DNA from: an uncultured Verrucomicrobiae bacterium
GTDB taxonomy: Bacteria > Verrucomicrobiota > Verrucomicrobiia > Chthoniobacterales > UBA10450
NCBI GenBank assembly: GCA_963756875.1
Contig: CAVWPA010000003.1
Location: 512,001-576,000, forward strand
Direction: 5' to 3'
Length of the DNA: 64,000 nucleotides
Made by a program: the position numbers and the translations under genes. Position 1 is the stretch's first letter. The number at the start of each line of letters is the position of its first letter. The notes under the pieces were generated by a model. The model saw nothing but the letters and a program-made list of their open reading frames with translations. It searched no databases and had not been told where the DNA came from. Of the stretch, positions 623 to 24,385 are shown piece after piece.

Positions 623-739
623 AAAACCGGCGCGCGAAGCACGGGAAACGCCCGTGCCCGGGATCGGCGCGAGTGGACATGCGCGTGCTGTCTGGCTAGA
701 ATGGCGTGATTCGCCGTCGTTCCGGTGGAGAAAATTTCT

Positions 740-2566: not shown

Positions 2567-2637
2567 CTGTAGCGGCGCTCTATGAGCGTCGCACTTTTTC
2601 TCGCAATATTTGCGACGGTCGTAGACCGCCGCTACAG
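2567..2637. repeat. GTAG-type REP doublet (REPIN-like inverted repeat)
   Basis: CTGTAGCGGCG-CTCTATGAGCGTCGC ... GCGACGGTCGTAGAC-CGCCGCTACAG. Confidence 0.75.
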
Positions 2638-2713
2638 CAATCCCCCCCCCAAAACAGACGGAAGAACGGCATGGAAAATGGTTCAAAGAGTGCACGGATC
2701 TATTCCGTTCGCG

Positions 2714-3680
2714 ATGGAAGCACCGACCCTTACTATTCTCGTTCCGTGCCTCAACGAAGAGCGCGGTGTCGCGTCGGTCGTGCGCGAGTACGCCACTGCG
2801 TTTCCAACTGCCGACATTCTCGTTGTAGATAACGGCTCGGAAGATGGAACCGCGGCCGTAGCCAAGGCTGCAGGTGCGACGGTGGTTACGGAAAGGCGGC
2901 GCGGGAAGGCGCGAGCGGTCGCCACAGCACTGTCGATGATCGACACCGATTTGGTGGTGATGGTAGACGGTGACGGAAGTTATCCCGCTGAAGGGGCAAA
3001 GCTCCTCTTGGCGGAATATCAGCGCGAGCCGGTCGATATGATCACCGGCATCCGCAGCGCGCAAAACACCACGCAGGCTTTCCGGCCGATGCATCAGTGG
3101 GGGATGTCGGTTTTTGCTTCGGTGTTGAATTTTGTTTTTCGATTTAACCCGCTGGACTTGTTCTCCGGGTTGCGGCTTTTTTCGCGCCGGTTTTACCAGC
3201 ACGTTCCGGTGCTTTCCCGTGGATTTGAGCTCGAAATCGAACTGACCATCCAGGCAATCGACAAAAGCTTTTCCATGAGCGAAACGCCGGTGCCATTTTG
3301 CAGCCGGGCGCAACGGTTCGGAATCAAAGCTCAAAACCGTCGGCGATGGTCTGCGTATTTTGCGGCTGTTCGTGGTCCTCTTTCGCGATTATCGGCCGTT
3401 CGCCTTTTTCGGGACGATCAGTGCAATCATCGCGGCGGGAGGGCTGATGGCAGGGTCGGTGCCGATCATGGAATATTTCCGCACGGGAATGGTGAATCGG
3501 TTTCCTCTGGCGATTCTTGCCGCCAGCCTGATGACGTTATCGATTCTAGTTGGCCTGGTCGGTACCCTTCTCGAGGCGAATCTGCGCTATCACCGTGAGG
3601 CCTATCACATTCAACTGCGAAAGTTCCGCGCGCCGGTCCAGAAACCATCGCGACCTTATCCGCGCGTGCTGGCGAGATAA
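2714..3680 (+). CDS. GT2 glycosyltransferase (polyprenol-phosphate sugar synthase-like, C-terminal TM helices); +1 frameshift near 3311-3314
   Basis: ILVPCLNEE, VVDNGSEDGT, DGDGSYP, DLFSGLR, GFELEIELT; removing one base gives CSRAQ-GSESKLKTVGDGLRILR, joining ORF 3360..3680. Confidence 0.85.
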
Positions 3681-3689
3681 CAGCGGGCG

Positions 3690-4706
3690 ATGGCCACGTT
3701 CCATATCCTCACTCAATATATCTGGCCGGATGCCGCTCCGACCGGACTTTACGCCGAGCATTTGGCGACGCGGTTACACGAGTTCGGTCATGATGTTCGG
3801 CTCGTTGGTGGTCAAGGCAGCTACCGGACTTTGCATCGTGACAAACCGCCGGTGCCGACTCTGCATCTTGAGCATTATCAGGGACGACGTGGCAAACTCG
3901 GTGAAACCTTTATTGAATACAGAGCGGTCAAACGCGGATTCGCCAATTACATCGACGATTTTGTAAAGCAAGGCGACGTTGTTGTTGTCACCAGCGCACC
4001 GCCAAACACAGTGGAACTGGCCTCCTGCATCAAGCGACGAAACGCGCGCGCGATCTATTGGTTGCAGGATTATTACCCGGAACTGATCCGCGGCATTCGC
4101 GAATATCCTGTCGTGTTCCGGCGCGCGTTGAGACGTTATTGGGATCGGAACCTCTCGCAGTGGGATCGCGTCGTGAAAATCGGCAGTAACCTCGGTGGTC
4201 CCAAGCACAACTCTATTATCATTCGTAATTGGCCAACCTTGAATTTTGATCACGATCTGTCGTGCGAGCCGCGCACGGCTCTGTACTCGGGCAATCTCGG
4301 TTACGGCCACGATGTCGGACTTTTTATTACGGCGTGCGAGCAGCTGCGCGATGCCGGCTATCGGATCACCGTCAGGGCGGACGGCCGCGGTGTGGCATAT
4401 TTGCCGAACTGGTTAAAGGCGCAGCCGCTGCACGCCGATCCGGAAAAACTAAAAGAGGACTTGCAGCGGCACGAAGTTCACGTGGTTGCGGCGCATCCAA
4501 AGATCACGCAAGCCATTTTCCCGTCGAAAATCTGGAACAGCATTGCGGCTGACCGCCGGCTCGTCTGCACCGGCTTCGCGGGCGAGATGGCTGACGAACT
4601 GGAATCGGCGTTGACCGCACGATCCGATCGCCATCTTGACCAGTGGTTGTCGCTGCTCCTCCCGATGGCGGAGCCGACTCAGGCTGGAATGGCCGTCGCT
4701 GCGTAA
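3690..4706 (+). CDS. GT4 glycosyltransferase (WcaI-like)
   Basis: ILTQYIWPD, TSAPP, YWLQDYYPE, IRNW, LYSGNLGYGH, FPSK motifs. Confidence 0.82.
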   Translation: MATFHILTQYIWPDAAPTGLYAEHLATRLHEFGHDVRLVGGQGSYRTLHRDKPPVPTLHLEHYQGRRGKLGETFIEYRAVKRGFANYIDDFVKQGDVVVVTSAPPNTVELASCIKRRNARAIYWLQDYYPELIRGIREYPVVFRRALRRYWDRNLSQWDRVVKIGSNLGGPKHNSIIIRNWPTLNFDHDLSCEPRTALYSGNLGYGHDVGLFITACEQLRDAGYRITVRADGRGVAYLPNWLKAQPLHADPEKLKEDLQRHEVHVVAAHPKITQAIFPSKIWNSIAADRRLVCTGFAGEMADELESALTARSDRHLDQWLSLLLPMAEPTQAGMAVAA

Positions 4707-7357
4707 GTAGAACCTGTTTGCAGCACTTCCGTGAGGTGCTGCGCGATCTGCTCCACGCCAATCTTGCGCATGCACCAGTTTTCCGGCTTTGCGCAACTCC
4801 ATTGAACACACGGATGAAACGGGCAACTTCGGTCGACAAACGGCTTCAGGCCGTATGGCGGGGCGAGCTTGTCCGGACTCGCCGGTCCAAACAAAACCGC
4901 GCCCGGTTTCCGGAACGCGCTCGCGATGTGCGCCGTGCTTGTATCGTTGGTCACGACGGCGCGTGCGTGCGCGATCAAACGAATCAGATCGGGGATCGAC
5001 ATGGAGTCGAATCTGGAAACGACGTTGTTTCTCGTAAGCAGCGCTTCAAGTGCAGGCCGATCTTCGCCGGCGACTTCCGACGTAAAGCCTGTCGCAACGA
5101 ACCGAACATCGGGAAATCGATCGACCAGCGCCAGAAAGTTTTCCATTGGCCAGTTTCGCCATCGACACACGGTCGTTAGGCATAACACAACGTGATCTTT
5201 TAATTCAGCAAGCGGTTCGCGGGCAAGCCGATCAAAGACCGTGTAGTCCAATTCGCATCCTAGAGCAGCCGCTGTTCGCTCGAGATCTTCATACTCATTT
5301 TCGCCAACGCGATGCGGGAGCGGATAGTTGGTCAGGCTACGACCTCCACGCGTGATCCGGCTCGCGATTTTTTTTGCTCCGGCGAATTTAATTGCAAGCG
5401 CACTGACCGCGCTTCCCGTTAAATCGATCCAGAGATCCGCCTTCGATTTGCGGGCTTCAGTGATTCGCCGCCACAACGCCGAAGGTCTGAGCGCAGACGG
5501 ATTCTTGAAGAAATCTTCGAGCGCATTGTCGAACGGTAGCACGTCCCAGCCGCAAGCTCGCCCGGTTTCACCGTGGGCCGGACGCAGCGCGACCTGGACA
5601 TTGATGCCTCTGCGACGGCCTTCATTTACGATTCCGGCGATCAGTGGCAGGTGCATGAAGAGATCGCCCAAACCAGCCGCGGAAGAAACAACGCAGCGGT
5701 CGGCCCAGGCAAATTGTTCCGCGCGCCGAAACGGACGAATGAGATCGACCGCTTTCATAATCAAAGCGCTTCGCAAGGAACGCGTGTCGTACCCGAGTCG
5801 CGAGTTGTTTTTCGTTGCGACGGATGTCTCCGCAGGCCGGAAGATGTGATGCGCGCAGATCAGCGCGGAAACGACGACGGCAATCGCGAAGGATAATCCG
5901 GTATGGATTCGGGCTGCGACCCACCAGATGGCAATGAGGACAAGCAGCCGCGGGGCAAATTGTGCTACTGGAGCGAGCCACATTCGGCCAAAGGTCGACC
6001 CAAGATCCCTGGCGATAAGTACCGCAGTTGGCAAAAGGAAGAGACCCGCGCCCGCGCCGATTGCCAGAATCAGCTCCGGACTGCCACGGCCGCGAACTGC
6101 GATGACAGATGCGGTGATTGTCGCCGCGCCGGCAAGCAGGCCGAGCGCGCTGGGGCGAGGCTTGGCCAAGCCCAAACTGGCCGCGGTTACCATTCGGCTG
6201 AAGCCGGTGGCGACTCCGAACAGTCCGATCAGTAACCCCGTGAAGGGGTTTTCAAGAGGCCGATGTAACCAAATTCGAAACAGGTCACCGGAGAAGAAAG
6301 TGTATGCGATGGCGCCGGTAAGGCAGAGAGCAATTGCGCTTTTGTAGCCGGTCGCGAAGTGGCGGCACCGATCGGATGCTGTTGGCGCCCCGGCGAGCGC
6401 GGCGATTGTTGGTTCACTGGTGCTGGCGCCCAGAACGCTGAGCAATTCCGAAAGCTTCAGATAGAGAAAAAAGGTGCCGGCCGCGGCCGGACCAAGCATC
6501 CAGGAGATAAGAAACACCAGGCCGTAGCTTTGAAAGATCCACGAAGCAGTAATGACATTGATCCAGCGGCCGACATGAAGAGCGGGCAAAATCTCCGCTG
6601 GGCGCAGGTGCGTTAGTTCGCGAACGAAAAGGCGCGGCTGCAAATTCGCGCGCGGCAGGAGAAAAAGCAGCGGAACCGCGAGCGCGGCAAAGTACGCAGT
6701 CGTTACGACCAGGACCGACGCCCCATTCATGAGCAGGGCAACTACAACACCAAATGCGAGCAGATTGCCGGCGAAAAGAGCTGCTTTGATTTGCGAAAGC
6801 CGGCCGGCGGCAGCGATTCGCTCGAGCAACAATTGCAACAACATTGAGACCGCCGTGAAACCGGCCGCCGTCACGATAATCAGATCGCCGATTGGCGGTA
6901 AATGAAGCCAGCGGTGCCAGCATCCGGCGAGCGAAAGCAGGCCAACGATGCCGACGGTACCGGCGGCTGCGACCGAAAAGGCTGCGAGATGTAAAGCATG
7001 CAGACGAATTTTTGCATCTTCAGGAAGACGCGGATTTGTTAGGCCGATGCGGGTCAATGTCCGTAATCCGAGATCGACGATTGCCATCAATGCGACGCAG
7101 GAATTCGCCACGGCAAACAAGCCAAACCGGTCCGCTCCCCATGCCGAGAGCATCAGCGGAGTGGCGACCGCAAAGAAAAGAATCTTTGCCGCGGCATTTA
7201 GCGATTCCCAGACGTGATTAAGGAAGAATTCGCGCCCCTGACGATCCGGCGCTTTCGTTTCAACGTTCGCGGGCGGCCCCACGGAGTGAACGCGCGGCCG
7301 CGGCAGGTTCACCGCACTTCGGGCGATTGATCCGGCTGACAACGACCCGGCCATCAA
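4679..7357 (-). CDS. Fusion of Wzx/MOP-type polysaccharide flippase (N-term) and GT9 heptosyltransferase-like domain (C-term)
   Basis: N-terminal multi-TM region (WGADRFGLFA, DLGL); C-terminal GLGDLFMHLPLI, RNWP, VTNDTSTAHIA, LFGP, CPFHPC...CM. Confidence 0.78.
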   Translation of the reverse strand: MMAGSLSAGSIARSAVNLPRPRVHSVGPPANVETKAPDRQGREFFLNHVWESLNAAAKILFFAVATPLMLSAWGADRFGLFAVANSCVALMAIVDLGLRTLTRIGLTNPRLPEDAKIRLHALHLAAFSVAAAGTVGIVGLLSLAGCWHRWLHLPPIGDLIIVTAAGFTAVSMLLQLLLERIAAAGRLSQIKAALFAGNLLAFGVVVALLMNGASVLVVTTAYFAALAVPLLFLLPRANLQPRLFVRELTHLRPAEILPALHVGRWINVITASWIFQSYGLVFLISWMLGPAAAGTFFLYLKLSELLSVLGASTSEPTIAALAGAPTASDRCRHFATGYKSAIALCLTGAIAYTFFSGDLFRIWLHRPLENPFTGLLIGLFGVATGFSRMVTAASLGLAKPRPSALGLLAGAATITASVIAVRGRGSPELILAIGAGAGLFLLPTAVLIARDLGSTFGRMWLAPVAQFAPRLLVLIAIWWVAARIHTGLSFAIAVVVSALICAHHIFRPAETSVATKNNSRLGYDTRSLRSALIMKAVDLIRPFRRAEQFAWADRCVVSSAAGLGDLFMHLPLIAGIVNEGRRRGINVQVALRPAHGETGRACGWDVLPFDNALEDFFKNPSALRPSALWRRITEARKSKADLWIDLTGSAVSALAIKFAGAKKIASRITRGGRSLTNYPLPHRVGENEYEDLERTAAALGCELDYTVFDRLAREPLAELKDHVVLCLTTVCRWRNWPMENFLALVDRFPDVRFVATGFTSEVAGEDRPALEALLTRNNVVSRFDSMSIPDLIRLIAHARAVVTNDTSTAHIASAFRKPGAVLFGPASPDKLAPPYGLKPFVDRSCPFHPCVQWSCAKPENWCMRKIGVEQIAQHLTEVLQTGSTYAATAIPA

Positions 7358-8052
7358 CTCCCTTTCTTTTCGTAAACAACCGCAAACGAATACGGTCCAA
7401 GCGACTCGTGCGACGCGATCTTTTGCAGGTTGCCAAGCTCAGCCGCCTTCCCGTCAACGTAACGAATGGAAAAGGTTGGAATCGCGTGATGCGCATTTCC
7501 CACGACGCCGTCGGGACTGATTTGCCCGGTCCAACGGCAGTACCGCAGATAACGTTGCTGGTCCGGCAGCAACAAAACCAGCTTTCCGCCAGGGCGCAGG
7601 ACGCGCACCCACTCGCGCAGAACACCGCTCGTTTCGGGCTCCGGAAAATCCTCCAAAACATGTGACGAGTAGACGTAGTCGAGCACGTCGTTCCGCAACC
7701 AGAATAAATTCCGGCAATCGCCGGGGAGCTGAACGGGTCTTCGACCCACCGCGGTATAAGGCATCGGAAGGTCCATTCCAATTGCGGAGGGTGTGATCGG
7801 ATCGCCGCCAAAGCCTATGTCGAGCCCGCAACCGACGCAGAATTTCTCGAGAACGGAGCGGTACCGCGATGTCTCGCTTCGAAACAGGACGACTCTGGCA
7901 ATTGCCGAGTATGCGTTGTCGCCAATGATGCCGCGAAGCGCGGCCTTCAAGTTCTTGATGAGGCGCCCGACGAACGGCGCCTTATCCGATTCATCGTTGG
8001 CCGGTGAGTGGAGTGCCGGTCGTTCTGTGAGTACAAAGCTCTCCGTTTTCAT
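7354..8052 (-). CDS. Class I SAM-dependent methyltransferase (Methyltransf_11-like)
   Basis: LDIGFGG, DYVYSSHVLED, LREWVRVLRPGG; stop overlaps start of downstream fusion gene. Confidence 0.85.
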   Translation of the reverse strand: MKTESFVLTERPALHSPANDESDKAPFVGRLIKNLKAALRGIIGDNAYSAIARVVLFRSETSRYRSVLEKFCVGCGLDIGFGGDPITPSAIGMDLPMPYTAVGRRPVQLPGDCRNLFWLRNDVLDYVYSSHVLEDFPEPETSGVLREWVRVLRPGGKLVLLLPDQQRYLRYCRWTGQISPDGVVGNAHHAIPTFSIRYVDGKAAELGNLQKIASHESLGPYSFAVVYEKKGS

Positions 8053-8080
8053 CTCTCTTCAACGGCACCCATGCTGAGCA

Positions 8081-9849
8081 TCACTTACCGAATCCAAGAT
8101 GGAACGGGTCGTATCCATAGCTTCTCCTGGGGTTCGTAAACATTCCGAGACGGGCGAGGGCATTGCTGCCGATAACAATGGCGCTGCCCTGCTTTTCAAG
8201 AACCGCAATTGCCTGAGGCGTCAATCGGTACAGAGAGACGATGATTGGTCTTTGCTCTAAAAATGGATCGTTGCGAACGAGATCCGCTGAGTACCAGGCT
8301 TCGCGCGGATCGATGGCAACGATGTTCGCGGGCACGGCACGCAACACCGCAGCGGCGCGCGCGTAGGGTCGGACAAATGTTTCGGCCTGGAAACAACGCA
8401 ATGGGAATTGGACCAGGATCGACGCCACAATTCCCGCGGCAACGAAGGCCAGCGCACGCCGTTGGCCGATGGCAACCGACAATCGATTGAATCCGACGAC
8501 GGCAAGCAGGATGAAGCAAACAATTACGCCGTGGAAATATCGGTAGCCCCAGCCGTGGGCTTGGTCGAGGTAGAAGAAAAAATAGAAACCGAACGTCACC
8601 AGGCAGCTGACCGCTGCATCCTGCAAAATCGGTGGAAGCCGGAAGAAACGGCCTGCGCCGAGAATGACCAGCAACGGCGTTGCCAGGCAGCTCCAACTGA
8701 TGATGAGCAGAAGATTCATCGGCTGAATGATCGCCATGCGCGGATTGAATAACCGAAACGTGCTTTCAACTGCGCCGGCTCCAAAGTGGGATCGAAACTG
8801 GATTGACCACCAGAGCCAGAGCGCGCATCCGCCAAGATAGATACCGGCAAAAATGAAGCTGGTCCGCCATCTTCGTTGCAAAACAAGGCGGAAGAGAAAA
8901 GGTGCGACGAAGAGCGCGTGAAAAACCGGCTGATGCAATCCCAGCGCTAGGAGACCGACGAAGGGCGCCAGAAAAAACCGGCGCCTGTCGGGCCGCGAAT
9001 AAAGCCACAACCAGATGGTGTTCAAGGCCAGATGGGCCGGCATCGCGTAGGACGTCATGGACATGAGCAGGAACTGCGATGAGCTGGCGAGCAGGCCGAC
9101 AGCAATCAGTGCGTTCATTTTCGCCTCCGGCCAGACGTTTCGCGCTATGCCGTAAACTGCCAGCACAGTCACGGCGGCGAGGAACGGATTCAGCAGAGTT
9201 TGCAGGTTGAAAAACTGAAAGGCGGCGCGCATCGCCGCGTAAACCGGCAGATAGGTTGCGTTCCAACGATGCGTCGCGGGGAAATAATCGACGTAGGTTG
9301 GCTTAATCACACGCACGGCGTCAACCCACGCCGCTGGAACTTCCGCCTGAAGTTCGTCCCCTCAGGAAGATCCTGGCTTGAAAGTCAGCCAGATATTCGT
9401 CTGCCGTCAGCGCATAATCGTGAAAGACAATTTGAGTCCCGACTACCGTAATGACGAACACGCCGATTGCGACGATTGCGAGGCCCCATTTTTCGCGGCC
9501 GACAATCCATTCCGTTACCCGTCGAGCAGCCACTTTCATCGGTTTGCGGAACATCCTCCAGGCAGCCGTGCCGGAGAAAAGAAAGACGACAACCAGGCCG
9601 GCTACTTCATTGCGCGCGAAAAGGACGTAAAAAACGTTGAACCAGAATCGCGGGTCGGGATTTCCGGCGGGAACGGTCCGCAGCCAGAGGGCGAACGCAA
9701 TTCCGATTACGGCAAGAGCAGCGATGGCTAAGAGAATGGTCGCTGGTTTGCGCTCCGGGCGCGCGCGCTGGTGCGTGAGCAGTCGTTTCTCCCGCAGTTA
9801 TCGCGAATTCGGGCAGGTTTTCCGCGATGGGCTCATACGTAGAAAGCAT
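8081..9849 (-). CDS. Multi-TM GT-C-like glycosyltransferase; interrupted by frameshift(s) near 9356 and probably 9760-9770; start uncertain
   Basis: LTADEYLADFQARIF (DE motif) joins ELQAEVP...VIKPT after removing one base; ORFs 9321..9554 and 8081..9316 plus upstream hydrophobic frame; many TM segments, GWGYRY. Confidence 0.6.
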
Positions 9850-9983
9850 TGGCGCAAGGGTTGATGCCTGATTGCGAAGCAGTCGCTGGGCCACCCCCTG
9901 CAGCGCAGAGCACGCAGACCAGGATCGATAATTCAAAGATCGACATCGTGAGCACAGGAATTGCACTCTGAGGCCGCGCGGAA

Positions 9984-11205
9984 ATGGACAAGCATGCTTC
10001 ATCACCCCGGCTGACAAAGTGGTCGCTGAGTCTCCTGATTGTTATCTTGGGCGCTGGAATTTTTCTGCGCGCGTGGCCAAGCACGGGCTTTAGGCATCTC
10101 GGCTACGACGAGGGAGTTTATGCCCGGTATGTTCAAACCGCGCTGAAGGAGGGGCTCTGGAGCTACCCGGAGATTGTGACTGCCTATGTGCAATGGCAGA
10201 AAGAACGACCCGACGCGGTGGTATCTCCAACGCGGGTTACTTTTCTGGTGCCGGCCGTCGTTTTAGCGGAACTTTTCGGGCTCCAACCCCTGACTGCTCT
10301 CCATGGCGTCGCGCTCGCTTCGAGCATCCTTTTACTTCTGGCAACCGCCGCAATCGGTTATCGTCTTGGCGGCACGAAACGCATGCTGGTTCTGACTGCG
10401 CTGATTGCTGTCGCGCCCCTCCAAATTCATCTGGCGCAGCGTTCGCTTGTGGACGGCTGCTTCGCTTTTTGGGCCGTGCTGTGTGCCTGGTTTCTTTGGG
10501 AAAATCTTCAAAAACCCGACCAGAGTGGATGGCTTCTTGCGTATGGAGCGAGCCTGTTCGCTCTGGTATTAACGAAAGAAAACGCGGCGTTCGTTTTTCT
10601 GGCACTGGTCGTGGTGTCGATCGTGTTTGCTCTCTGCAAACTCGGCAGACTGAATTGGCCCCTGGTTTTTGTAAGCGTGATCGCGCCGGGTCTCGCTGTT
10701 TTGTTTCTCGCCATGCTGGTTGGGGGAGTTGGAGAATGGATCTCATTTTACCGGGCGTTCGTTCAGAAATCGGCGACGCTTAGCTATGCAGCGCGGCTTC
10801 AGGATGGTGCGTGGTACCGTTACCTCGTCGATTTTACCCTCCTCTCGCCTTTGATCATTGCATTGGCGTTTGGCGCGCTTTTCCAGATCAAAAAGGAATC
10901 GAAGCCGGACATTTTCTGGTCTGTTTTTCTCGGGGCCAGTTTTATCGCGATGTCCAGCATTCCGCATGGAATGAGCCTGCGTTTTGCCGCGTACTGGGAT
11001 GTGCCGCTGCGCTGGCTGGCCGCCTCACAAGTCCTTCTACTTGCGGATCGTTTTCCGCGTATCAAAACGTGGACCATCTTGATCGGTCTCGTCCTGATTT
11101 TGACCACGGTCGATTTGTTGCAGGACCTGGCGCTTTTTCGTTCACGGAGGCATCTATGACCCCGTCAGCCTCCAACTCTTTCGCGCCTCGAAGTTAATCA
11201 AGTAA
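9984..11205 (+). CDS. GT-C glycosyltransferase (ArnT/PMT, GT39/GT83-like); +1 frameshift near 11124-11127
   Basis: GYDEGVY, SLVDG, LTKE motifs and many TM helices; shifted frame continues WRFFVHGGIYDPVS...LIK* to 11205. Confidence 0.75.
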
Positions 11206-11227
11206 CAGGCAGGAACACTTCTCGCAC

Positions 11228-11243
11228 TGGCACATGTGCTGCT
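11228..11243 (+). promoter_or_regulatory. Sigma-54 (-24/-12) promoter upstream of Dpm1-like GT2
   Basis: TGGCACATGTGCTGCT: GG and GC at canonical spacing. Confidence 0.65.
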
Positions 11244-11256
11244 CCTTTTTCGGGGA

Positions 11257-12096
11257 ATGTGCGACCCCATTGCATCTGCTGAAGTCGCGGGTCGTCTTTT
11301 CGCGACCGCTTGGGACCGCCACAAGGGTCAACACCACGAAAATGGCCGTGTTGATTTAAGTCTGGTTCTACCCACGTACAACGAGCGTGAAAATATGGGA
11401 GAACTTTTTGCTCGGATCGATCGCGCCCTAGCCGGTAGTTGCTTTGAAGTGATCCTGGTTGACGATGATTCTCCCGACCGGACCTGGGCCGTCGCGCAAA
11501 AATTTCAGAGACTTTACCCATGGCTTCGTGTGATTCGACGCCAGAACGCTCGCGGACTGGCGTCCGCCGTGATCTACGGCTTTCGCCATTGCCGCGGTGA
11601 GGTCCTTGGTGTCATGGATGCCGACCTGCAACATGACGCCGCACTGTTGCCCGCGCTTCTCGCGGAAATGGATTGCGCTGATTTCGCCGTCGCTACCAGG
11701 CGCGCCGCTGGCGGAAGCGACGGCAAGTGGTCGAAGTTACGCCGGCTCGCGAGTCTTCTTGCGACCGCTTTCGCTCGCTGGATGACAAGCATGCCTCTCT
11801 CAGATCCCATGTCGGGCTTCTTCCTCGTTCGACGCGAGATTTTTCAATCGATCGACGCCGATTTACGACCGCGTGGCTACAAAGTTTTGATGTACCTGTA
11901 CGCCAAGGCCGCGCAGCGATTCGGGGGAGGCGCGCTTCGTCTGGCAGAAGTCGGATATCAATTCGCCAAGCGGGCGCACGGGCGAAGCAAGCTGTCGCTC
12001 GCCGTGATCATTGATTATTTTCTGATGTTAATGGGGCTGCGCCTTCGGGGCAGAGCCGGCGCGCGTCGCCCTCAATGGTCGCACGCGGCGTTTTAG
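11257..12096 (+). CDS. Polyprenol monophosphomannose synthase-like GT2 (Dpm1/Ppm1 family); start uncertain
   Basis: LPTYNEREN, VDDDSPDRT, RGLASAV, MDADLQH, SDPMSGFF, GYK, R.HG.SKL. Confidence 0.88.
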   Translation: MCDPIASAEVAGRLFATAWDRHKGQHHENGRVDLSLVLPTYNERENMGELFARIDRALAGSCFEVILVDDDSPDRTWAVAQKFQRLYPWLRVIRRQNARGLASAVIYGFRHCRGEVLGVMDADLQHDAALLPALLAEMDCADFAVATRRAAGGSDGKWSKLRRLASLLATAFARWMTSMPLSDPMSGFFLVRREIFQSIDADLRPRGYKVLMYLYAKAAQRFGGGALRLAEVGYQFAKRAHGRSKLSLAVIIDYFLMLMGLRLRGRAGARRPQWSHAAF

Positions 12097-12141
12097 GAGA
12101 CGTTGCTCGGGTCGAGCGGCGTCTCGAGGGCGATACTGGTT

Positions 12142-14028
12142 CTAAGGATGCACCGGCTGCGTTCCGATTTGCTCGCCAAGTTCCAGGAACTCGTGCTGAT
12201 TTGGTTCAAGCGCAATTGCCCGTTCAATTTCGAGTTTTGCCTGCTCCCTCTCGCCAAGATCCAAAAGCGCTTTTGCGAGAAGGTAGTGGGCCTTGGCTTC
12301 GTACGGAGCTCGCGCAACCGCTTGCTCGAAAAAATGCCGGGCTTCGGAAAAACGTCCTGACTGCAGCATAATCACTCCGAGGTTGTTCAGCGCGCCCTTG
12401 TGCTGCGGATCGAATCGAACGACAGCGCGGTAAAACGCGGCCGCTTCATCAGGGTGTCCTTCCGCCAGTCGCAGGTTACCAAGCGCGAAAATGGTTTCAC
12501 TATTTCCAGGAACGTAGGCGTACGCGATGGCGAGCTTCTTCTCGGCAAGGGGAAGATTGTTCGACTCAAGCGCTTGCCACCCGGAATTGTAAGCATCCAG
12601 CGCCCATAACGACGGACTGCGCTGTGGCCACGCAACAAACAGCGTCGATCCGGCGAGAAGCGCGAAATAGATCGCGACCGTGGCGAGTCGATTGTTCGCG
12701 CAGGCTCGCCACAGCAGCGACAATCCCAACGCCGCGAAAATGAGCAAGCCCGGCACCGCCACGAGCCGATAGCGTTCGGTGATAAAAACTGGGAGAAGAG
12801 CAAACATCGACAACAAAATCGCCGCCGTGATCCAGCGGGATGCAGGGACAAATCGCCATCCGAGCACAATTCCCGGAAGTGCCAGGGCCGCGACAATGGA
12901 GAAATAGAGTCCCGGCAGAATAACGCCTTGCTCGCGCAAATTCGTGATGATGCTGAGATCGTCGTATTGGAAAGCGTTCCAAAAATTACGCAGCTTGATT
13001 GCAAGGAGTTTCACCCAATGTCCAAAGTGTGTTTGGATGTAATGGGTCGCTTTGGCAGACCAATAAGCCGACACGTCGGCGCGTTTAAGCGGATGTCCGA
13101 CAGCCGCCTCCGCTTGCGTAATCGAATCCTGAAGCATGGCGGCTTGTCCGGCGCGAAGGCCTGGCGGGAAACGGGGGTACCCGTTCGCTTCGGGATTATT
13201 GCCGATCCAGAAATTAATGCCGCTGTGCGCGGAAAGAAAAACCGGATCCCGCGCAATCAAATAGTTGTGAATCCAACAGGGCGAGGTGCCGAGGACGACG
13301 GCGCCAATCAAGATCGCGCCGCGCTTCGCGACCATGCGCCACCGATCGCTGATATCGAGATTCGATTGAATCGCTAGAGCGCCGAGAACGAGCGGGATGA
13401 TGACCAGGATTGTGGCAACGCCGGTTGCGACGATGCCGATGAGTAGTCCAAGCCAAAAGCATTCTTTCGCACTGGGCGCATCGTTGGTTCGAGTAACTCG
13501 CCAGACCACGAACCAAAAGAAGAAAACAAACCAGACCGTCGGCATTAGGATGACCGCATAAGCCTGCGCCGGAACAAAAAATGCCCAGCCGAGCGCCGCT
13601 GCGGCAGCTACGACTCTCGCGCCTCTCTTGTGGTCTATTTGAACGGAGGACAAAAACGATCGCGCCGGGAATAACTCGGCCGAATGCAACACTCGGAGGG
13701 CCATTTTGTAGACAAGAAACGCCGTGCCGGCGTCGAGTGCCGCCTGAAGGAGACCGGGGATCAGCAGGTTGTAACCAAAGAGCTTGTAAAGAAGTGCCAG
13801 CAGGTACGCGTAACCGGGCAATCCATAGAAGGCCAGCGTTGCGCCCACTTTCCCGTGCAGGATCCTCAGGGCCCAATCGTTGTAAAAATGCATGTCTCCC
13901 CGCGTCGGGACGAGAAACGGCGACGAGGCCAAGCGAGCGAGGACAAACATCCTCACGGCGAGGACCGTGGCAAAGATGAGGTAGTCAGGCCCAAGTGAGA
14001 GCCGTCGCAGCCGGGATGGGGTTTTCAC
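12142..14028 (-). CDS. GT-C membrane glycosyltransferase with C-terminal TPRs
   Basis: GDMHFYNDWA, PGYAYLLA, GINFWIGNNP, ERYRL; C-terminal TPRs (FALGNL, ALNNLG, AHYLLA). Confidence 0.75.
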   Translation of the reverse strand: MKTPSRLRRLSLGPDYLIFATVLAVRMFVLARLASSPFLVPTRGDMHFYNDWALRILHGKVGATLAFYGLPGYAYLLALLYKLFGYNLLIPGLLQAALDAGTAFLVYKMALRVLHSAELFPARSFLSSVQIDHKRGARVVAAAAALGWAFFVPAQAYAVILMPTVWFVFFFWFVVWRVTRTNDAPSAKECFWLGLLIGIVATGVATILVIIPLVLGALAIQSNLDISDRWRMVAKRGAILIGAVVLGTSPCWIHNYLIARDPVFLSAHSGINFWIGNNPEANGYPRFPPGLRAGQAAMLQDSITQAEAAVGHPLKRADVSAYWSAKATHYIQTHFGHWVKLLAIKLRNFWNAFQYDDLSIITNLREQGVILPGLYFSIVAALALPGIVLGWRFVPASRWITAAILLSMFALLPVFITERYRLVAVPGLLIFAALGLSLLWRACANNRLATVAIYFALLAGSTLFVAWPQRSPSLWALDAYNSGWQALESNNLPLAEKKLAIAYAYVPGNSETIFALGNLRLAEGHPDEAAAFYRAVVRFDPQHKGALNNLGVIMLQSGRFSEARHFFEQAVARAPYEAKAHYLLAKALLDLGEREQAKLEIERAIALEPNQHEFLELGEQIGTQPVHP

Positions 14029-14079
14029 AGGTTAGGCCCGACACGGTTGTCGGAAAATGTCTGATTTAATTGACCCGGT

Positions 14080-14095
14080 TGGCATCTACGCTGCT
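14080..14095 (+). promoter_or_regulatory. Sigma-54 promoter of pilin copy 1
   Basis: TGGCATCTACGCTGCT, 77 nt upstream of ATG. Confidence 0.75.
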
Positions 14096-14172
14096 GGAAA
14101 ACACGTGGTTTCCTGCGACAGACGTCGCAGGACGCAATCCAAACAAATCATAAATAAAGGGAAAGCAATAGC

Positions 14173-14577
14173 ATGTTAAACGCCATCAATAAACGCCGCG
14201 GGGGCTTCACGCTCGTGGAAATCATGATCGTGGTTGCGATCATCGCACTGCTTGCAGCGATCGCCGTCCCGGGGTTTCTCCGGGCGCGCAAACGCTCGCA
14301 AGCCACCCGAATTCTGAACGATCTGCGAATGATCGATTCAGCGGTTGACCAATATGCGATCGAGACCAACCGGAGCACCGGGAACACTGTTGCCGTGCAG
14401 GATTGGACGAACTACCTCAAAAAGGGAACTGCCCTCTACAACACCGGCAAAGACCTCCTTGGAAACACTTACGGTGCGCAGGCCGTGGATACTCTGCCGA
14501 AGGTTCCGACGGCCAGTTTCGCTGCCCTGTCGGACGTCGCTCCGGCCGTGTTTTGGTCTCCGTATTCGGCCAACTAA
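14173..14577 (+). CDS. Type IV pilin / prepilin-type protein, copy 1
   Basis: Basic leader, G|FTLVEIMIVVAII class III signal with E+5, hydrophobic helix, Pro at AVPG. Confidence 0.92.
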   Translation: MLNAINKRRGGFTLVEIMIVVAIIALLAAIAVPGFLRARKRSQATRILNDLRMIDSAVDQYAIETNRSTGNTVAVQDWTNYLKKGTALYNTGKDLLGNTYGAQAVDTLPKVPTASFAALSDVAPAVFWSPYSAN

Positions 14578-14588
14578 CGAATCTGACG

Positions 14589-14636
14589 ATTCATTCTCCT
14601 GTCATCGCCCCACGCGGGCAGTGGCAGAGAATGAGT
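14589..14636 (+). terminator. Stem-loop after pilin copy 1 (terminator or mRNA stabiliser)
   Basis: ATTCATTCTCCTGTCATCGCCC...GGGCAGTGGCAGAGAATGAGT; pairing conserved in copy 2; no strong U-tract. Confidence 0.5.
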
Positions 14637-14714
14637 TCTGAGGCAGACTAGGTTGGAGGGACATTTTGACCCGCTCCAAGTCCCCCCCGGCAAATGCATC
14701 ATAATTTTAAGAAT

Positions 14715-14730
14715 TGGCATCATCGCTGCT
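14715..14730 (+). promoter_or_regulatory. Sigma-54 promoter of pilin copy 2
   Basis: TGGCATCATCGCTGCT preceded by AT-rich tract; retained although surrounding sequence differs from copy 1. Confidence 0.75.
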
Positions 14731-14804
14731 CTTTAAAGGGCTGATCCGCGATCGGAATCGCGGGACGCAGTTAAACAAACCAGAGATAAAAGGAAAGCAA
14801 TAGC

Positions 14805-15209
14805 ATGTTAAACGCCATCAATAAACGCCGCGGGGGCTTCACCCTCGTGGAAATCATGATCGTGGTTGCGATCATCGCACTGCTTGCAGCGATCGCCGTC
14901 CCGGGGTTTCTCCGGGCGCGCAAACGCTCGCAAGCCACCCGAATTCTGAACGATCTGCGAATGATCGATTCAGCGGTTGACCAATATGCGATCGAGACCA
15001 ACCGGAGCACCGGGAACACTGTTGCCGTGCAGGATTGGACGAACTACCTCAAAAAGGGAACTGTCCTCTACAACACCGGCAAAGACCTCCTTGGAAACAC
15101 TTACGGTGCGCAGGCCGTGGATACTCTGCCGAAGGTTCCGACGGCTAGTTTCGCTACCCTGTCGGACGTCGCTCCGGCCGAGTTTTGGTCTCCGTATTCG
15201 GCCAACTAA
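14805..15209 (+). CDS. Type IV pilin / prepilin-type protein, copy 2
   Basis: Same as copy 1 except A87V, A118T, V126E. Confidence 0.92.
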   Translation: MLNAINKRRGGFTLVEIMIVVAIIALLAAIAVPGFLRARKRSQATRILNDLRMIDSAVDQYAIETNRSTGNTVAVQDWTNYLKKGTVLYNTGKDLLGNTYGAQAVDTLPKVPTASFATLSDVAPAEFWSPYSAN

Positions 15210-15220
15210 CGAATCTGACG

Positions 15221-15268
15221 ATTCATTCTCCTGTCATCGCTGCCAAACGGCGCTGGCAGGGAATGAGT
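15221..15268 (+). terminator. Stem-loop after pilin copy 2
   Basis: ATTCATTCTCCTGTCATCGCTG-CCAAA-CGGCGCTGGCAGGGAATGAGT. Confidence 0.5.
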
Positions 15269-15269
15269 T

Positions 15270-17426
15270 GTGAGAGCCGACTCAAAACAAACCCCACTGG
15301 CAACGAGCCCTTCGAACCGAACCGCCGTTTGCCAGCTTAAAAAGCTGAACCGGTATCTCTTTGCCGATTGGTTTCGCTGTCTGCTCCTCGCGTTGATCGG
15401 ATTCGTGGTGCGGTTGCCCGCCCTGCAAGGGGAGCGCATCTGGGACGATCAATACTTGGTGCACGACAATCCGTTTATCAAAAGTCCCCTTTTGATTCTG
15501 GAGGCGTTCCGGCACCCGCTGTTTCTGGACTCATTCTCGGGCGATTATCGGCCAATCCAGAATGTCTCCTATTTTATCGACTACTTTTTCTGGAATACCG
15601 ACACGTTTGGATTTCACCTGACGAATGTGCTTTTGCACCTGGGCGCGGGCATTTTGCTTTTCTTCCTGGTTAGGCAATTAGTCGGCTCCCTGCTTTTGCG
15701 TGGAGTTCGATTGCCGGCGCGCGATCGCTTTTTGAAAAGAATGCCATGGGTGTCGCATGCTGCTTTCCTGTTGGCGCTCCTTTGGATCGTGCATCCGGTA
15801 CAGAGCGCGGCCGTTGATTACATTTCGGGCCGGGCCGACAGCCTGGCCTTCTTTTTTGCAACCGCCGCCTGGCTGTTGTTCCTGCATGCCCAGCGCGGCA
15901 GGCGGCAGCTTGGTCGCGTCTCGCTGTATTGTCTGGCTGCGGTTTCGGCCTTGCTGGCATTGCTTTCGCGCGAAATCGCCCTTGTATGGATCGTTCTCTT
16001 TCTTGCTCACGTCTTTTTGGTCGAGAGAAACCTTGCATTGCGTACTCGGATGGCCGCATTGCTTTGTTGCGCGGCACTTGGCCTGGCTTATTTGGGCCTT
16101 CGCCAACTGCCGCACCAACCGTTCGTTCCCGCACCACAGCAAGACTGGCAAGGGCCTGTGCGGTCAGTCCTGATGGCGCGCGCGTTAGGCGATTACTGCC
16201 GCCTTATGATTTTCCCATCTAATCTCCACATGGAACGGACGGTGTTTGATCCGGCGAATTATCGTAATAACGCTGATTGGCGCACATCGATTGGTACGGA
16301 GTACCTGTCTATTTTAGGGCTGGTCTTTCTGGCAGTCCTCATTTTCGGGTGTGCCAAGCGAGGGCGCGGCCAGGCCGTCCGGATTTTCGGGGCGGGCTGG
16401 TTTTTGGCCGGTTATCTTCCGGTCTCGAATATTGTTCTTTTGAATGCAACCGTCGCTGAACACTGGCTTTATCTTCCCAGCGTAGGATTTCTCCTATTCT
16501 TGGCAGGTTGCATGTTCGAAGTCCGAGGGAAACATTTGAGAATCGCCGCAGCCTTGGTCGTCCTCTTTGCCGCTGCTGGCTTAAGCGCTCGCAGCTATCT
16601 GCGCAGCACCGATTGGATCAACGCCGAAACGTTCTATCGCCGGACGCTCGCGGCGGGCGGCACGAATCCCCGAATCGGACTTAATCTCGGCCAGATCTAC
16701 GCCAATCGCGGTGACTATGCTAAAGCCGAACGAGTATTTAGGGAGGTGCTCAAGGCGGCACCGGACTACCCCCTTGCTCAGAACAATTTGGCCAGCGCTC
16801 TCGCGCACGAAGGGAAAACCAAGGAAGCAGAAGCCCTTTTTTCTCTGCTGGAGAAAAACTCCCTTCGCAATCGCCAGGAATACCCTCGTACCTGGGTCGG
16901 CGTGTTGAACTTGGCTCGAACGCGTCACAACGCGGGAAACAACCAAGCCGCGTTCGCAATCCTGGAGAAAGCGCGAAAAGAGTATCCCCAGGTTTGGGAG
17001 ATCGTCAGCTTCGAATCGGAGCTCCTTCGCAAAGAGCGGGGGCCTGATGCTGTTTTGAAGCTCGTGGAAGACTTTGCGCATGACAACTGGTGGCATTATG
17101 ACGCGTACCTCGCATTAGGCCGGCTGTATGCCCAGGAAGGCGATGCAACTCGCGCGGAGGCAGCGTTGCGCCATGCCAGCTGGCTCGATATTCACAGTAC
17201 CGATGCCTTGCAGCTCATCGTGCTCATGCGACTGCGTCAGAATCGATTCGAGGAAGCCGCGCAAACACAGCGACGCGCCATCGCTCGGCAGCCCGACGAA
17301 CCGCACCAATACATCCTGCTCTCGAACATCCTGGAAAAAATGGGACGGGAGGATGAGGCCTGCGCCGCGCTCGCGCAAGCGTCGCGACTTCGTGCTTTGG
17401 CCACAGGCAAAGCAGTTGTGAATTAA
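15270..17426 (+). CDS. TMTC-like (DUF1736/GT105-like) membrane glycosyltransferase with TPRs; start uncertain
   Basis: IWDD...DN, YRP, FHLTNVLLH, HPVQSAAVDYISGRAD, SRE, AEHWLYLPSVG, R...W, followed by TPRs. Confidence 0.82.
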   Translation: MRADSKQTPLATSPSNRTAVCQLKKLNRYLFADWFRCLLLALIGFVVRLPALQGERIWDDQYLVHDNPFIKSPLLILEAFRHPLFLDSFSGDYRPIQNVSYFIDYFFWNTDTFGFHLTNVLLHLGAGILLFFLVRQLVGSLLLRGVRLPARDRFLKRMPWVSHAAFLLALLWIVHPVQSAAVDYISGRADSLAFFFATAAWLLFLHAQRGRRQLGRVSLYCLAAVSALLALLSREIALVWIVLFLAHVFLVERNLALRTRMAALLCCAALGLAYLGLRQLPHQPFVPAPQQDWQGPVRSVLMARALGDYCRLMIFPSNLHMERTVFDPANYRNNADWRTSIGTEYLSILGLVFLAVLIFGCAKRGRGQAVRIFGAGWFLAGYLPVSNIVLLNATVAEHWLYLPSVGFLLFLAGCMFEVRGKHLRIAAALVVLFAAAGLSARSYLRSTDWINAETFYRRTLAAGGTNPRIGLNLGQIYANRGDYAKAERVFREVLKAAPDYPLAQNNLASALAHEGKTKEAEALFSLLEKNSLRNRQEYPRTWVGVLNLARTRHNAGNNQAAFAILEKARKEYPQVWEIVSFESELLRKERGPDAVLKLVEDFAHDNWWHYDAYLALGRLYAQEGDATRAEAALRHASWLDIHSTDALQLIVLMRLRQNRFEEAAQTQRRAIARQPDEPHQYILLSNILEKMGREDEACAALAQASRLRALATGKAVVN

Positions 17427-24316: not shown

Positions 24317-24385
24317 CTTGACGACGAGTGTCGAACCTGTAAGTCAAGCACAGCAGCCCGTTTTCTCCAGCGAAAATCCCCGATT

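Follow-up and report, generated by a model that had tools for sequence, protein, structure and literature searches.

We describe a locus in a 64,000-nt stretch of DNA, hereafter the window, which spans positions 512001–576000 of contig C3 in the 2.69-Mb, three-contig genome of a soil verrucomicrobium. The relatives with which it is compared are metagenome-assembled genomes (MAGs) of the order Chthoniobacterales, and the gene order was established from a listing of open reading frames (ORFs) together with Pfam and NCBIfam scans. At the centre of the locus two tandem type IV pilin genes lie between two genes, here named TPRA and TPRB, encoding membrane proteins that end in tetratricopeptide repeats (TPR) and whose membrane domains are predicted to have the fold of the GT-C glycosyltransferases. 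A homolog of the synthases that make lipid-phosphate sugars (GT2b), a further putative GT-C enzyme of 391 aa and an island of other candidate glycosylation genes lie on the TPRA side (Table 1). We find that the order TPRA, pilin(s), TPRB is kept in related loci, and we suggest that the locus probably serves to glycosylate the pilins in the periplasm.

Results

The tandem pilin genes

The first-pass annotation of this DNA had described two tandem prepilin genes flanked by TPR-tailed membrane proteins, and this is what we find: both pilins match the N_methyl domain PF07963 (35.5 and 35.4 bits, cut-off 21.2), and on each side of them is a protein with about 11 helices followed by TPR. The pilins differ at 3 of their 134 residues (97.8% identity) and are part of a 632-nt tandem duplication. 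Pilin 1 has a prepilin leader with the sequence GFTLVEIM, contains no cysteine, matches TIGR02532 and resembles PilA and GspG at its N-terminus. The features that mark a type IV pilin are present: the prepilin leader has G/FTLxE, and the N-terminal helix is hydrophobic (PF07963, TIGR02532). In its strict form the prepilin motif occurs in 8 ORFs of the whole genome, and two of these are the pilins described here.

The profile of the pilin family matches the solved type IV major pilins (PilA/PilE) as well as GspG, in both cases via the N-terminal helix only (residues 1–70), and the sequence alone does not decide between a major pilin and a pseudopilin. A pseudopilin of a type II secretion system (T2SS) was considered and is not the option that we favor, because the genes are tandem copies, no gsp genes lie nearby and pilus regulators stand beside the related genes; this context favors a pilin. 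Genome-wide we found three long PilB/GspE-type ATPase matches and six shorter T2SSE matches, and we read the latter as putative PilT-like ATPases.

In an alignment of 123 unique members of the pilin family, mature residues 1–53 are almost invariant and cysteine is absent, and variation is found at positions 57–65, 99–107 and 113–115. Serine or threonine is kept at mature positions 31, 34, 58, 68, 75, 80, 109 (in the motif LSDV) and 118 (in FWSPY). The residue at position 58 is kept as S/T in 100% of the members, within a loop that is otherwise variable. We regard the kept residues as candidate glycosylation sites, and as nothing more.

Elements resembling sigma-54 promoters lie about 77–79 nt before both pilin starts, and the second of them falls outside the 300-nt repeat copy. 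They were recognised with what we take to be the −24/−12 consensus. As the window as a whole contains 58 occurrences of the pattern against 73 expected, which is not above chance, the elements are notable by their position before both pilins only.

The proteins flanking the pilins

The structures of TPRA and TPRB were modelled with AlphaFold2 and aligned to representatives with VIA-align, which was used instead of Foldseek as a search with the whole TPRA model had been swamped by TPR matches. TPRA has about 11 helices in residues 13–465 and a C-terminal TPR domain at about 472–623, and its gene is divergent from pilin 1 across a gap of 144 nt. Its model is based on an alignment of 46 sequences (pLDDT 86.9, pTM 0.86). 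From about residue 13 to 480 it aligns with the GT-C enzymes AglB (3waj, Z 21.6, 305 residues aligned), ArnT (5f15, Z 20.8, with a root-mean-square deviation of 3.9 over 305 residues) and ALG12 (Z 20.6), and further with Pmt2 (6p2r_B, Z 19.0, 364 residues aligned), Pmt4 (Z 18.3), PglB (Z 17.5), GPI-MT-I and STT3, the top matches of the membrane domain covering 305–364 residues each. TPRB, which starts 60 nt past pilin 2, has a GT-C domain at about 26–450 and a long C-terminal TPR domain at about 452–712. Its model, built from 20 sequences (pLDDT 78, pTM 0.74), aligns at about 26–480 with AglB (Z 17.9, 331 residues aligned), Pmt2 (Z 17.3, 350 residues), STT3B and Pmt4 (both Z 16.5), and also with ALG12 (Z 16.2), AftB (Z 15.1), ArnT (Z 14.8), PglB (Z 14.4), AftD and DPY19. 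For both proteins, all matches of the membrane domain are GT-C enzymes or the GT-C-like PIG-U, the remaining rows being TPR matches. On the strength of the models both membrane domains can be assigned the GT-C fold, which agrees with the first-pass annotation.

The membrane domains are also the best-conserved parts of the two proteins. In TPRB the residues W58-D59-D60 after helix 1 are invariant in alignments of 20 and of 34 orthologs. In TPRA the residues D45, Y49, W52 and Y355-D356-D357 are invariant among 46 sequences, and the protein of the window has N50-D51 at a place where the consensus is DD. One or more acidic residues in the first extracytoplasmic loop, as expected of GT-C enzymes, are found in TPRA, TPRB and the 391-aa protein; their position relative to helix 1 was read from DSSP lists (TPRA and TPRB) and from a hydrophobicity scan. 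As a basic N-terminus and 11 long helices precede the TPR domain, this domain is predicted to lie on the periplasmic side in both proteins.

Assignment of the two proteins to a named family was less direct. Phmmer and profile searches of the PDB sequences with TPRA and TPRB gave TPR matches only. PMT_2 was matched at E ≤ 1 by 7 of 46 TPRA orthologs (best 3e-5), and among 40 full-length distant representatives of the TPRB family three match PMT_2 or PMT above the Pfam cut-offs. DUF1736, which we take to be PF08409, was found neither in residues 1–457 of TPRB (E ≤ 10) nor in 34 orthologs (E ≤ 1) nor in the 40 distant representatives (E ≤ 0.001). The TMEM260-like domain PF11028 occurred once in the 34 TPRB orthologs (E 0.025) and once among 120 listed TPRA homologs. 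In JGI data, 14 of 120 listed TPRB homologs carry the name 'protein O-mannosyl-transferase'.

Four more TPRB-type GT-C/TPR paralogs are encoded in the same genome, at C3:507160-508629 on the minus strand (about 3.4 kb before the start of the window), C1:551532-553316, C3:867245-870454 and C3:1624461-1625933.

Donor synthase and the 391-aa GT-C protein

GT2b matches PF00535 (111 bits), and its residues 40–265 align with residues 24–243 of the dolichyl-phosphate mannose synthase (DPMS) of Pyrococcus, 5mlz (E 1.2e-48, 169 bits); the next-best structures, ArnC and the GtrB-like sll0501, follow at about 1e-12 to 1e-11. The first-pass annotation's assignment of this gene as a Dpm1/Ppm1-like synthase is hereby strengthened, and from its sequence GT2b is the likely maker of a lipid-phosphate-sugar donor. 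That TPRA and TPRB would draw on a polyprenol-phosphate sugar supplied by this adjoining DPMS homolog is suggested by circumstantial evidence.

The 391-aa protein has no Pfam match itself. Relatives that are 35–42% identical to it match PF02366 above the cut-off (31.3, 25.1 and 43.6 bits; 9 loci at E ≤ 1e-6), and these are proteins of about 400 aa without a MIR domain. Its neighbours in the ESM Atlas are PMT/PMT_2 clusters at 0.99, and D42-E43, after helix 1, is invariant in 31 relatives. Its identity as a PMT-family GT-C is in this way indirectly supported.

Many related loci encode, in place of a separate methyltransferase, a fusion of a GT2 with a SAM methyltransferase (511–536 aa, e.g., L042:4376-5926 on the plus strand), the GT2 part of which is weakly DPMS-like (E 4.6e-9). 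In the relatives this fusion, which is the most frequent gene of the island, pairs with a PMT-family GT-C on the opposite strand, and it could mark a lipid-linked methylated sugar donor.

Conservation within Chthoniobacterales

A scan of one genome per species gave 571 related stretches, and we counted in the best 80, which come from one order and have a TPRB identity of 52–68%, using the 69 loci with at least 700 nt of flanking sequence, the 57 with at least 4.5 kb and, for gene content, 53 loci. All 69 have a pilin match upstream of TPRB and in its orientation; by motif the pilin was seen in 63 of the 69, as one copy in 18, two in 44 and four in 1. In all 57 TPRA lies on the opposite strand, and the order TPRA, pilin(s), TPRB is kept. 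The linkage of pilin and TPR-tailed GT-C on which the first-pass annotation had based its idea is thus conserved. As there are 8 strict prepilin ORFs in the genome and the arrangement is conserved, it is not a product of chance. Part of this conservation is plain descent, since all the loci are from one order and other neighbours are often syntenic too: ilvC lies directly downstream of TPRB in 43 of the 71 loci counted, and near the triad 47 of 51 loci have the 864-aa TPR protein.

The other side of the triad varies. In 21 loci with both flanks, 1.7–6.8 kb separate the acyl-CoA dehydrogenase gene from TPRA, where the window has 9.6 kb, and the genes in this interval are not the same. Within it, 20 of these 21 loci have one or more GT2 or GT-C family genes; the GT2-methyltransferase fusion was counted in 13, PMT in 9, GT87 in 5 and PMT_2 in 2, and single extras were an acyltransferase, an amine oxidase and DUF7657. 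Of 53 loci, 46 have a relative of the 391-aa protein. By tblastn (E ≤ 1e-5) in the same 53 loci, GT2a was found in 11 (mostly at 22–37% identity), the split gene described below in 7, and the GT4-like, 892-aa and methyltransferase genes in 2 each. The outer genes, which the first-pass annotation took for parts of the pathway, are present in the window, but with 2–11 occurrences in 53 loci most of them amount to accessory genes that come and go, and do not form a constant pathway. Given these counts, the fixed core consists of the triad and one PMT-like GT-C, and the remainder is an accessory, fast-changing glycosylation island.

Linkage beyond the order

TPRB-type proteins were searched for with a profile of the TPRB N-terminal domain (E ≤ 1e-10) in 151 sampled Verrucomicrobiota genomes; 30 had matches, often several copies, and 40 regions were examined. 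One of these, from a genome of the same family, carries the ortholog and has two pilins. In the 39 non-orthologous loci, small pilin genes lie directly beside the GT-C/TPR gene in six, of which four come from one genus of family f17 and one each from families f25 and f38. Three gene orders were seen: a pilin, the GT-C gene and more pilins, with a PilR-like regulator and dnaG nearby; a pilin, then the GT-C gene, then another membrane protein; and a Dpm1-like GT2, the GT-C gene, a pilin, a PilR-like regulator and a PilB-like ATPase. In four loci of one other family (L089, L100, L101 and L103) a shorter GT-C/TPR gene, for 566–636 aa, is bracketed by two to four small pilin genes on the opposite strand, and this cluster has dnaG and a two-component pair on one side and a PilR-like regulator on the other.

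A quick tree of 63 N-terminal domains was built by maximum likelihood; on it the label 'pilin-adjacent' requires 4 changes, all inside one supported clade of 37 rows (SH-aLRT 96), and none of 500 label shuffles came as low as 4, a comparison in which kin share labels and the root is arbitrary. The tree shows clustering and several separate pilin-linked branches, and not a number of origins. The paralog of this genome on contig C1 is the sister of the pilin-linked TPRB clade.

Neighbouring genes and the outer island

Table 1. Genes and other features at the pilin locus, with positions in the window.
Feature	Position	Strand	Basis
Acyl-CoA dehydrogenase (left border of the island)	725-2524	+	ORF, Pfam/NCBIfam scan
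GT2a, family-2 glycosyltransferase, AglJ/dolichyl-P-hexose-synthase-like, accessory	2582-3598	+	PF00535
Weak GT4-like (GT-B) glycosyltransferase, accessory	3690-4706	+	PF13439 below cut-off, NF007640
892-aa fusion, N-terminal membrane domain and C-terminal GT9	4679-7357	-	PF01075
S-adenosylmethionine (SAM) methyltransferase	7354-8052	-	PF08241
Polytopic membrane protein, frame-split, candidate GT-C	8081-9849 (ORF 8081-9316)	-	Ortholog in related locus L002
391-aa putative PMT-family GT-C, no TPR tail	9984-11159	+	Via relatives matching PF02366
GT2b, Dpm1/DPMS homolog	11236-12096	+	PF00535, 5mlz
TPRA, 628 aa, predicted GT-C fold and TPR	12142-14028	-	Model, Pfam TPR
Sigma-54-like -24/-12 elements TGGCAT-N5-CTGC	14080-14094 and 14715-14729	+	Pattern search, 2 mismatches
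Type IV pilin 1, 134 aa	14173-14577	+	PF07963, TIGR02532
Type IV pilin 2, 134 aa	14805-15209	+	PF07963
TPRB, 718 aa, predicted GT-C fold and TPR	15270-17426	+	Model, Pfam TPR
ilvC	17509-18510	+	ORF, Pfam/NCBIfam scan
864-aa all-TPR protein	18902-21496	-	ORF, Pfam/NCBIfam scan

The gaps between the genes are short, except at 9317–9983 (the shifted start of the split gene) and 14578–14804. The second GT2 named by the first-pass annotation is GT2a, which has 68.4 bits to PF00535 and matches the AglJ family TIGR04182 at E 1.1e-38 (133 bits, under the cut-off of 325), with weak matches only in the PDB (GpgS and ArnC, about 1e-5). The GT4 of that annotation was not confirmed, as the gene scores 22.2 bits to PF13439 where the cut-off is 28.5; it matches the WcaI family NF007640 at E 4e-7. 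In the 892-aa protein, described earlier as a flippase-GT9 fusion, the GT9 part was found (PF01075 at residues 636–835, 54.4 bits, heptosyltransferase-like), but the flippase part was not recovered by Pfam: residues 1–619 have no match even at E ≤ 10, although a hydrophobicity scan gives about 10 hydrophobic segments in this half. The family is small, with 40 proteins listed including that of the window, and two of them bear JGI names that include 'O-antigen/teichoic acid export membrane protein'. By these two names only, the membrane half is possibly a flippase. The methyltransferase was detected as described, with 33.2 bits to PF08241 (cut-off 21.2), and its gene shares 4 nt with the beginning of the 892-aa gene.

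The gene next to it runs through at least three frames (8081–9361, 9321–9797 and an ATG at 9849 in the third), of which the frame 9321–9797 holds three hydrophobic segments and the sequence HDYALTADEY. Its ortholog in a related locus, L002, is one continuous ORF of 602 aa. In the same window uvrA (21352–24343, minus strand) is likewise frame-split, with its N-terminal 253 aa at 23582–24343 and the other 758 aa at 21352–23628, and split matches were also seen in several related MAGs. A look-up of sequencing runs gave one soil-metagenome DNA run with 0.07 of the words and no RNA run, which has no bearing on the breaks or on expression. Pseudogenisation as the cause of the breaks was rejected and errors of insertion or deletion in the assembly are the likely explanation, as uvrA is split in the same way. 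One of 8 orthologs of the split gene matches PMT_2 (E 0.0046), and one Atlas cluster has PMT_2 in 40% of its members, which makes it a candidate GT-C and a lead to follow. Of the four GT-C enzymes counted by the first-pass annotation, three are therefore supported, TPRA and TPRB by their models and the 391-aa protein via its relatives, and the ORF 8081–9316 is a lead only.

The first-pass annotation also recognised no en-bloc oligosaccharyltransferase of the PglL/TfpO type, and we found no Wzy_C/PglL-type gene in the locus either. Four Wzy_C matches lie elsewhere in the genome (C3:477421-477864, C3:1011078-1011515, C3:837450-837887 and C2:18002-18433), in ORFs of 613–809 aa. Such lengths are out of the ordinary, and the proteins could carry additional fused domains.

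Discussion

The closest known system appears to be TfpW, and neither TMTC nor PMT, with the likeness lying in the described architecture and in the position of the genes. A preprint describes TfpW as the pilin D-arabinofuranosyltransferase of Pseudomonas aeruginosa group IV strains (Pa5196/PA7), a GT-C protein of 646 aa with its N-terminus in the cytoplasm, 11 predicted helices and, in the periplasm, a large TPR domain, for which ArnT is the best structural template and a polyprenol-phosphate sugar the donor (bioRxiv 10.1101/2020.04.19.049825). According to the same source tfpW is the gene that immediately follows pilA in Pseudomonas and other Proteobacteria, pilin glycosylation requires a DDX motif that TfpW has in its first periplasmic loop, and TfpW homologs have the proline motif YX6PFX7P near the TPR domain, with an EmbC form also being discussed. 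TPRB (718 aa, with its WDD) stands directly after pilin 2, where tfpW stands after pilA, and TPRA is, with 628 aa, close to TfpW in length; both genes adjoin a type IV pilin gene, and both models have about 11 helices and a C-terminal TPR domain that would be periplasmic. On the other hand, there are two mutually unrelated GT-C/TPR proteins here, one on each side of the pilins; the adjoining synthase is DPMS-like (hexose/mannose type) in place of a D-arabinofuranose pathway; a variable island adds TPR-less GT-Cs and methyltransferases; and the phylum is Verrucomicrobiota. A search by regular expression found YX6PFX7P in neither TPRA nor TPRB. TPRB has an EmbC-type proline motif at another place, Y274-X6-P281-X5-P287, in which Y274, L280 and P281 are invariant in the orthologs. 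As it is located in the middle of the protein and far from the TPR domain, it may be a coincidence.

As TfpW already combines a GT-C domain with a periplasmic TPR domain beside pilA, the eukaryote-like route proposed by the first-pass annotation was an overstatement, and the design as such is known. What is new here is the doubling of unrelated GT-C/TPR proteins, the mannose-type donor synthase and the variable GT-C island. The animal proteins TMTC1–4 have 11 helices and lumenal TPR, with a DUF1736 loop between helices 7 and 8 (PMC7801869), and like TMEM260 they use a donor of the Dol-P-Man type and act on a defined class of folded proteins (PMC7801869, PMC10214176). TPRA and TPRB share with them the 11-helix GT-C domain and a TPR domain outside the cytoplasm. 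Membership in the TMTC family (GT105), which had been suggested earlier, is not supported, since DUF1736 is absent from TPRB, its orthologs and the distant representatives and PF11028 is only sporadic; the resemblance is thus one of architecture.

Other systems share single elements with the locus, among them actinobacterial protein O-mannosylation and the fungal PMTs. In the former, Pmt (GT39) acts outside the cytoplasm, together with the polyprenol-phosphate-mannose synthase Ppm1, on Sec-translocated proteins rich in serine and threonine. A homolog of such a synthase and putative PMT-family GT-Cs are found here too, the 391-aa relatives matching PF02366 and TPRA and TPRB aligning with Pmt2 and Pmt4 at Z 16.5–19, and the GT87 genes of relatives recall the polyprenol-phosphate-mannose-dependent mannosyltransferases of mycobacteria. 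TPRA and TPRB nevertheless do not fit PMT proper: the window proteins match neither PF02366 nor MIR, TPR tails take the place of MIR, and the presumed acceptor is a pilin. In the GtrA/GtrB/Gtr* and GT136 systems a polyprenyl-phosphate sugar synthase and a flippase work with a periplasmic GT-C (PMC11127046). A synthase and a presumed periplasmic GT-C are shared, but those systems modify O-antigen or other glycans and have a small GtrA/SMR or MATE flippase, none of which was seen among the 16 ORFs scanned here, and the GT-Cs here carry TPR domains and flank pilins. Glycosylation of type IV pilins by TfpO likewise takes place in the periplasm, and tfpO adjoins pilA (bioRxiv 10.1101/2020.04.19.049825); PglL, TfpO and PilO are Wzy_C proteins and not GT-Cs, and transfer an oligosaccharide en bloc from undecaprenyl-diphosphate. 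Outside supplementary material, we found among the papers listed nothing that links Verrucomicrobia with pilin glycosylation, no mannose-type GT-C pilin system and no work on TMTC-type O-mannosyltransferases of bacterial pilins, and on the combination of pilin, GT-C and TPR we found the TfpW preprint only.

Taken together, we hold with moderate confidence that the locus is a TfpW-like pilin glycosylation module, which would take a hexose, probably mannose, from polyprenol phosphate and attach it, O-linked, to the pilin on the periplasmic side. This is the best reading because the predicted GT-C folds have invariant acidic residues, the proteins are linked to pilins, and a donor synthase and further GT-Cs lie alongside. 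The pilin is the presumed acceptor in this reading.

Several observations weigh against this reading. The sugar and the activity, like the acceptor, are things that we infer. The N-terminal domains of the window proteins have no Pfam match at E ≤ 10, so that neither PMT_2 nor DUF1736, the families suggested by the first-pass annotation, was matched; an N-terminal profile gave 0 matches among PDB sequences; and hhalign comparisons among the TPRB, TPRA and 391-aa families gave probabilities of 0.6–5%, which is not significant. A relaxed prepilin motif has a background of 24 ORFs in the 2.69 Mb of this genome. The excess of pilin adjacency in distant loci is modest, with four of the six cases from one genus and no pilin beside the TPRB-type gene in the other 33 of 39, and the other four TPRB-type matches in this genome are not beside a prepilin-motif ORF. 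The 80 orthologous loci are from a single order, in which ilvC and the 864-aa protein are often syntenic as well. A gene of the island is frame-broken in the assembly, no flippase of the GtrA/SMR/MATE type was matched among 16 locus ORFs scanned, and the four Wzy_C (WaaL/PglL-type) genes elsewhere could glycosylate the pilin en bloc instead.

Some of these points would also fit if TPRA and TPRB were active GT-Cs acting on other periplasmic or surface proteins or on envelope glycans, with the pilins as mere neighbours by inherited synteny. The TPRB-type family is very large (61,242 cluster representatives recovered by the N-terminal profile at E ≤ 0.001, and five matches in this genome), most of its distant loci are free of pilins, and sets of GT2 and GT-C are described for the periplasmic modification of O-antigen and other glycans (PMC11127046). 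We nevertheless find this option unlikely, as the triad stays intact in all of the loci counted while both flanks change, TPRB starts very close to pilin 2, genes of its type again adjoin pilins in three other families, where the arrangements differ and pilus regulators are present, and TfpW as described is a direct precedent. Still more improbable, to the point that we give it very little weight, is that the two proteins are non-enzymatic membrane scaffolds with a degenerate GT-C domain that use their TPR for pilus assembly or pilin stability in the manner of PilF, PilW or TadD. Homologs are indeed named 'PilF', 'TadD' or 'TPR repeat protein' in the source databases, PilF (2fi7, Z 13.5) and PilW (2vq2, Z 13.3) can be aligned with the TPR region of TPRB, and Pfam places the window proteins in no named GT-C family. 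These names reflect the TPR repeats only, however, and TPR matches are generic, whereas it is the membrane domains that are best conserved, with invariant acidic residues at the catalytic positions of GT-Cs, and the putative donor synthase adjoins.

How far the module extends is a separate matter, and here we give an appreciable chance, if short of even, to a smaller module in which only the triad, possibly joined by GT2b and the 391-aa GT-C, serves the pilin; the outer genes (2582–9849) would then form a separate module for envelope polysaccharide or lipopolysaccharide (LPS) core. The rarity of the outer genes in related loci fits such a split, and so does the GT9 domain, since GT9 proteins are relatives of LPS-core heptosyltransferases that use cytoplasmic nucleotide sugars (NCBIfam matches, JGI names). 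In locus L002 a Polysacc_synt (Wzx-type) gene and a GT4 stand at the corresponding place, and GT4 and GT9 are ill-suited to a purely periplasmic stepwise route. Against it, some glycosylation genes always stand beside the triad, with GT2 or GT-C genes in nearly all islands, and apart from single extras the island encodes no other function.

If the locus is a pilin glycosylation module, as we favor, we speculate that it works as follows. On the cytoplasmic face, GT2b (in relatives also the GT2-methyltransferase fusion) would load a hexose, most likely mannose, on polyprenol phosphate, and the lipid-linked sugar would be flipped by some flippase, a role that the membrane half of the 892-aa protein might fill. 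Before assembly the pilin would have its N-terminal helix in the inner membrane and its globular domain in the periplasm, held by the TPR domains of TPRA and TPRB, whose GT-C domains could then move the sugar to serine or threonine in exposed loops, with mature S/T58, S109 and S118 as candidates. As the two proteins have no detectable sequence similarity, they probably differ in site, sugar or step. The GT-Cs that lack TPR, which are PMT-like here and of the GT87 and PMT_2 families in relatives, might extend or cap the glycan, as might the methyltransferases.

Type IV pili are the receptors of many phages and function in adhesion, motility and DNA uptake. The variable content of the island could thus give rise to lineage-specific pilus surfaces, for example against pilus-specific phages, from which glycosylation by TfpW or TfpO is reported to protect Pseudomonas (bioRxiv 10.1101/150227). 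In its boldest form, which we put forward tentatively and regard as rather doubtful in full, the proposal is that Chthoniobacterales, which are very abundant in soil, O-mannosylate their pili from polyprenol-phosphate mannose with two unrelated pilin-specific GT-C/TPR enzymes, and that the fast-turning island of GT-Cs and methyltransferases leads to lineage-specific, partly methylated oligomannose. If O-mannosylation is indeed what takes place, it would be a bacterial counterpart of the fold-specific O-mannosylation by TMTC and TMEM260 in animals, and some members of a family that comprises over 60,000 sequence clusters would receive a first function. TfpW is so far little studied and described in few Proteobacteria, and here the same design appears to be fixed at the pilin locus across a common and mostly uncultured soil order. 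For members of a huge, unnamed family of GT-C/TPR proteins the locus suggests a role that can be tested, namely O-glycosylation directed specifically at pilin, and it may serve as a tractable bacterial model for how TPR-tailed GT-Cs such as TMTC and TMEM260 choose their substrates among folded proteins.

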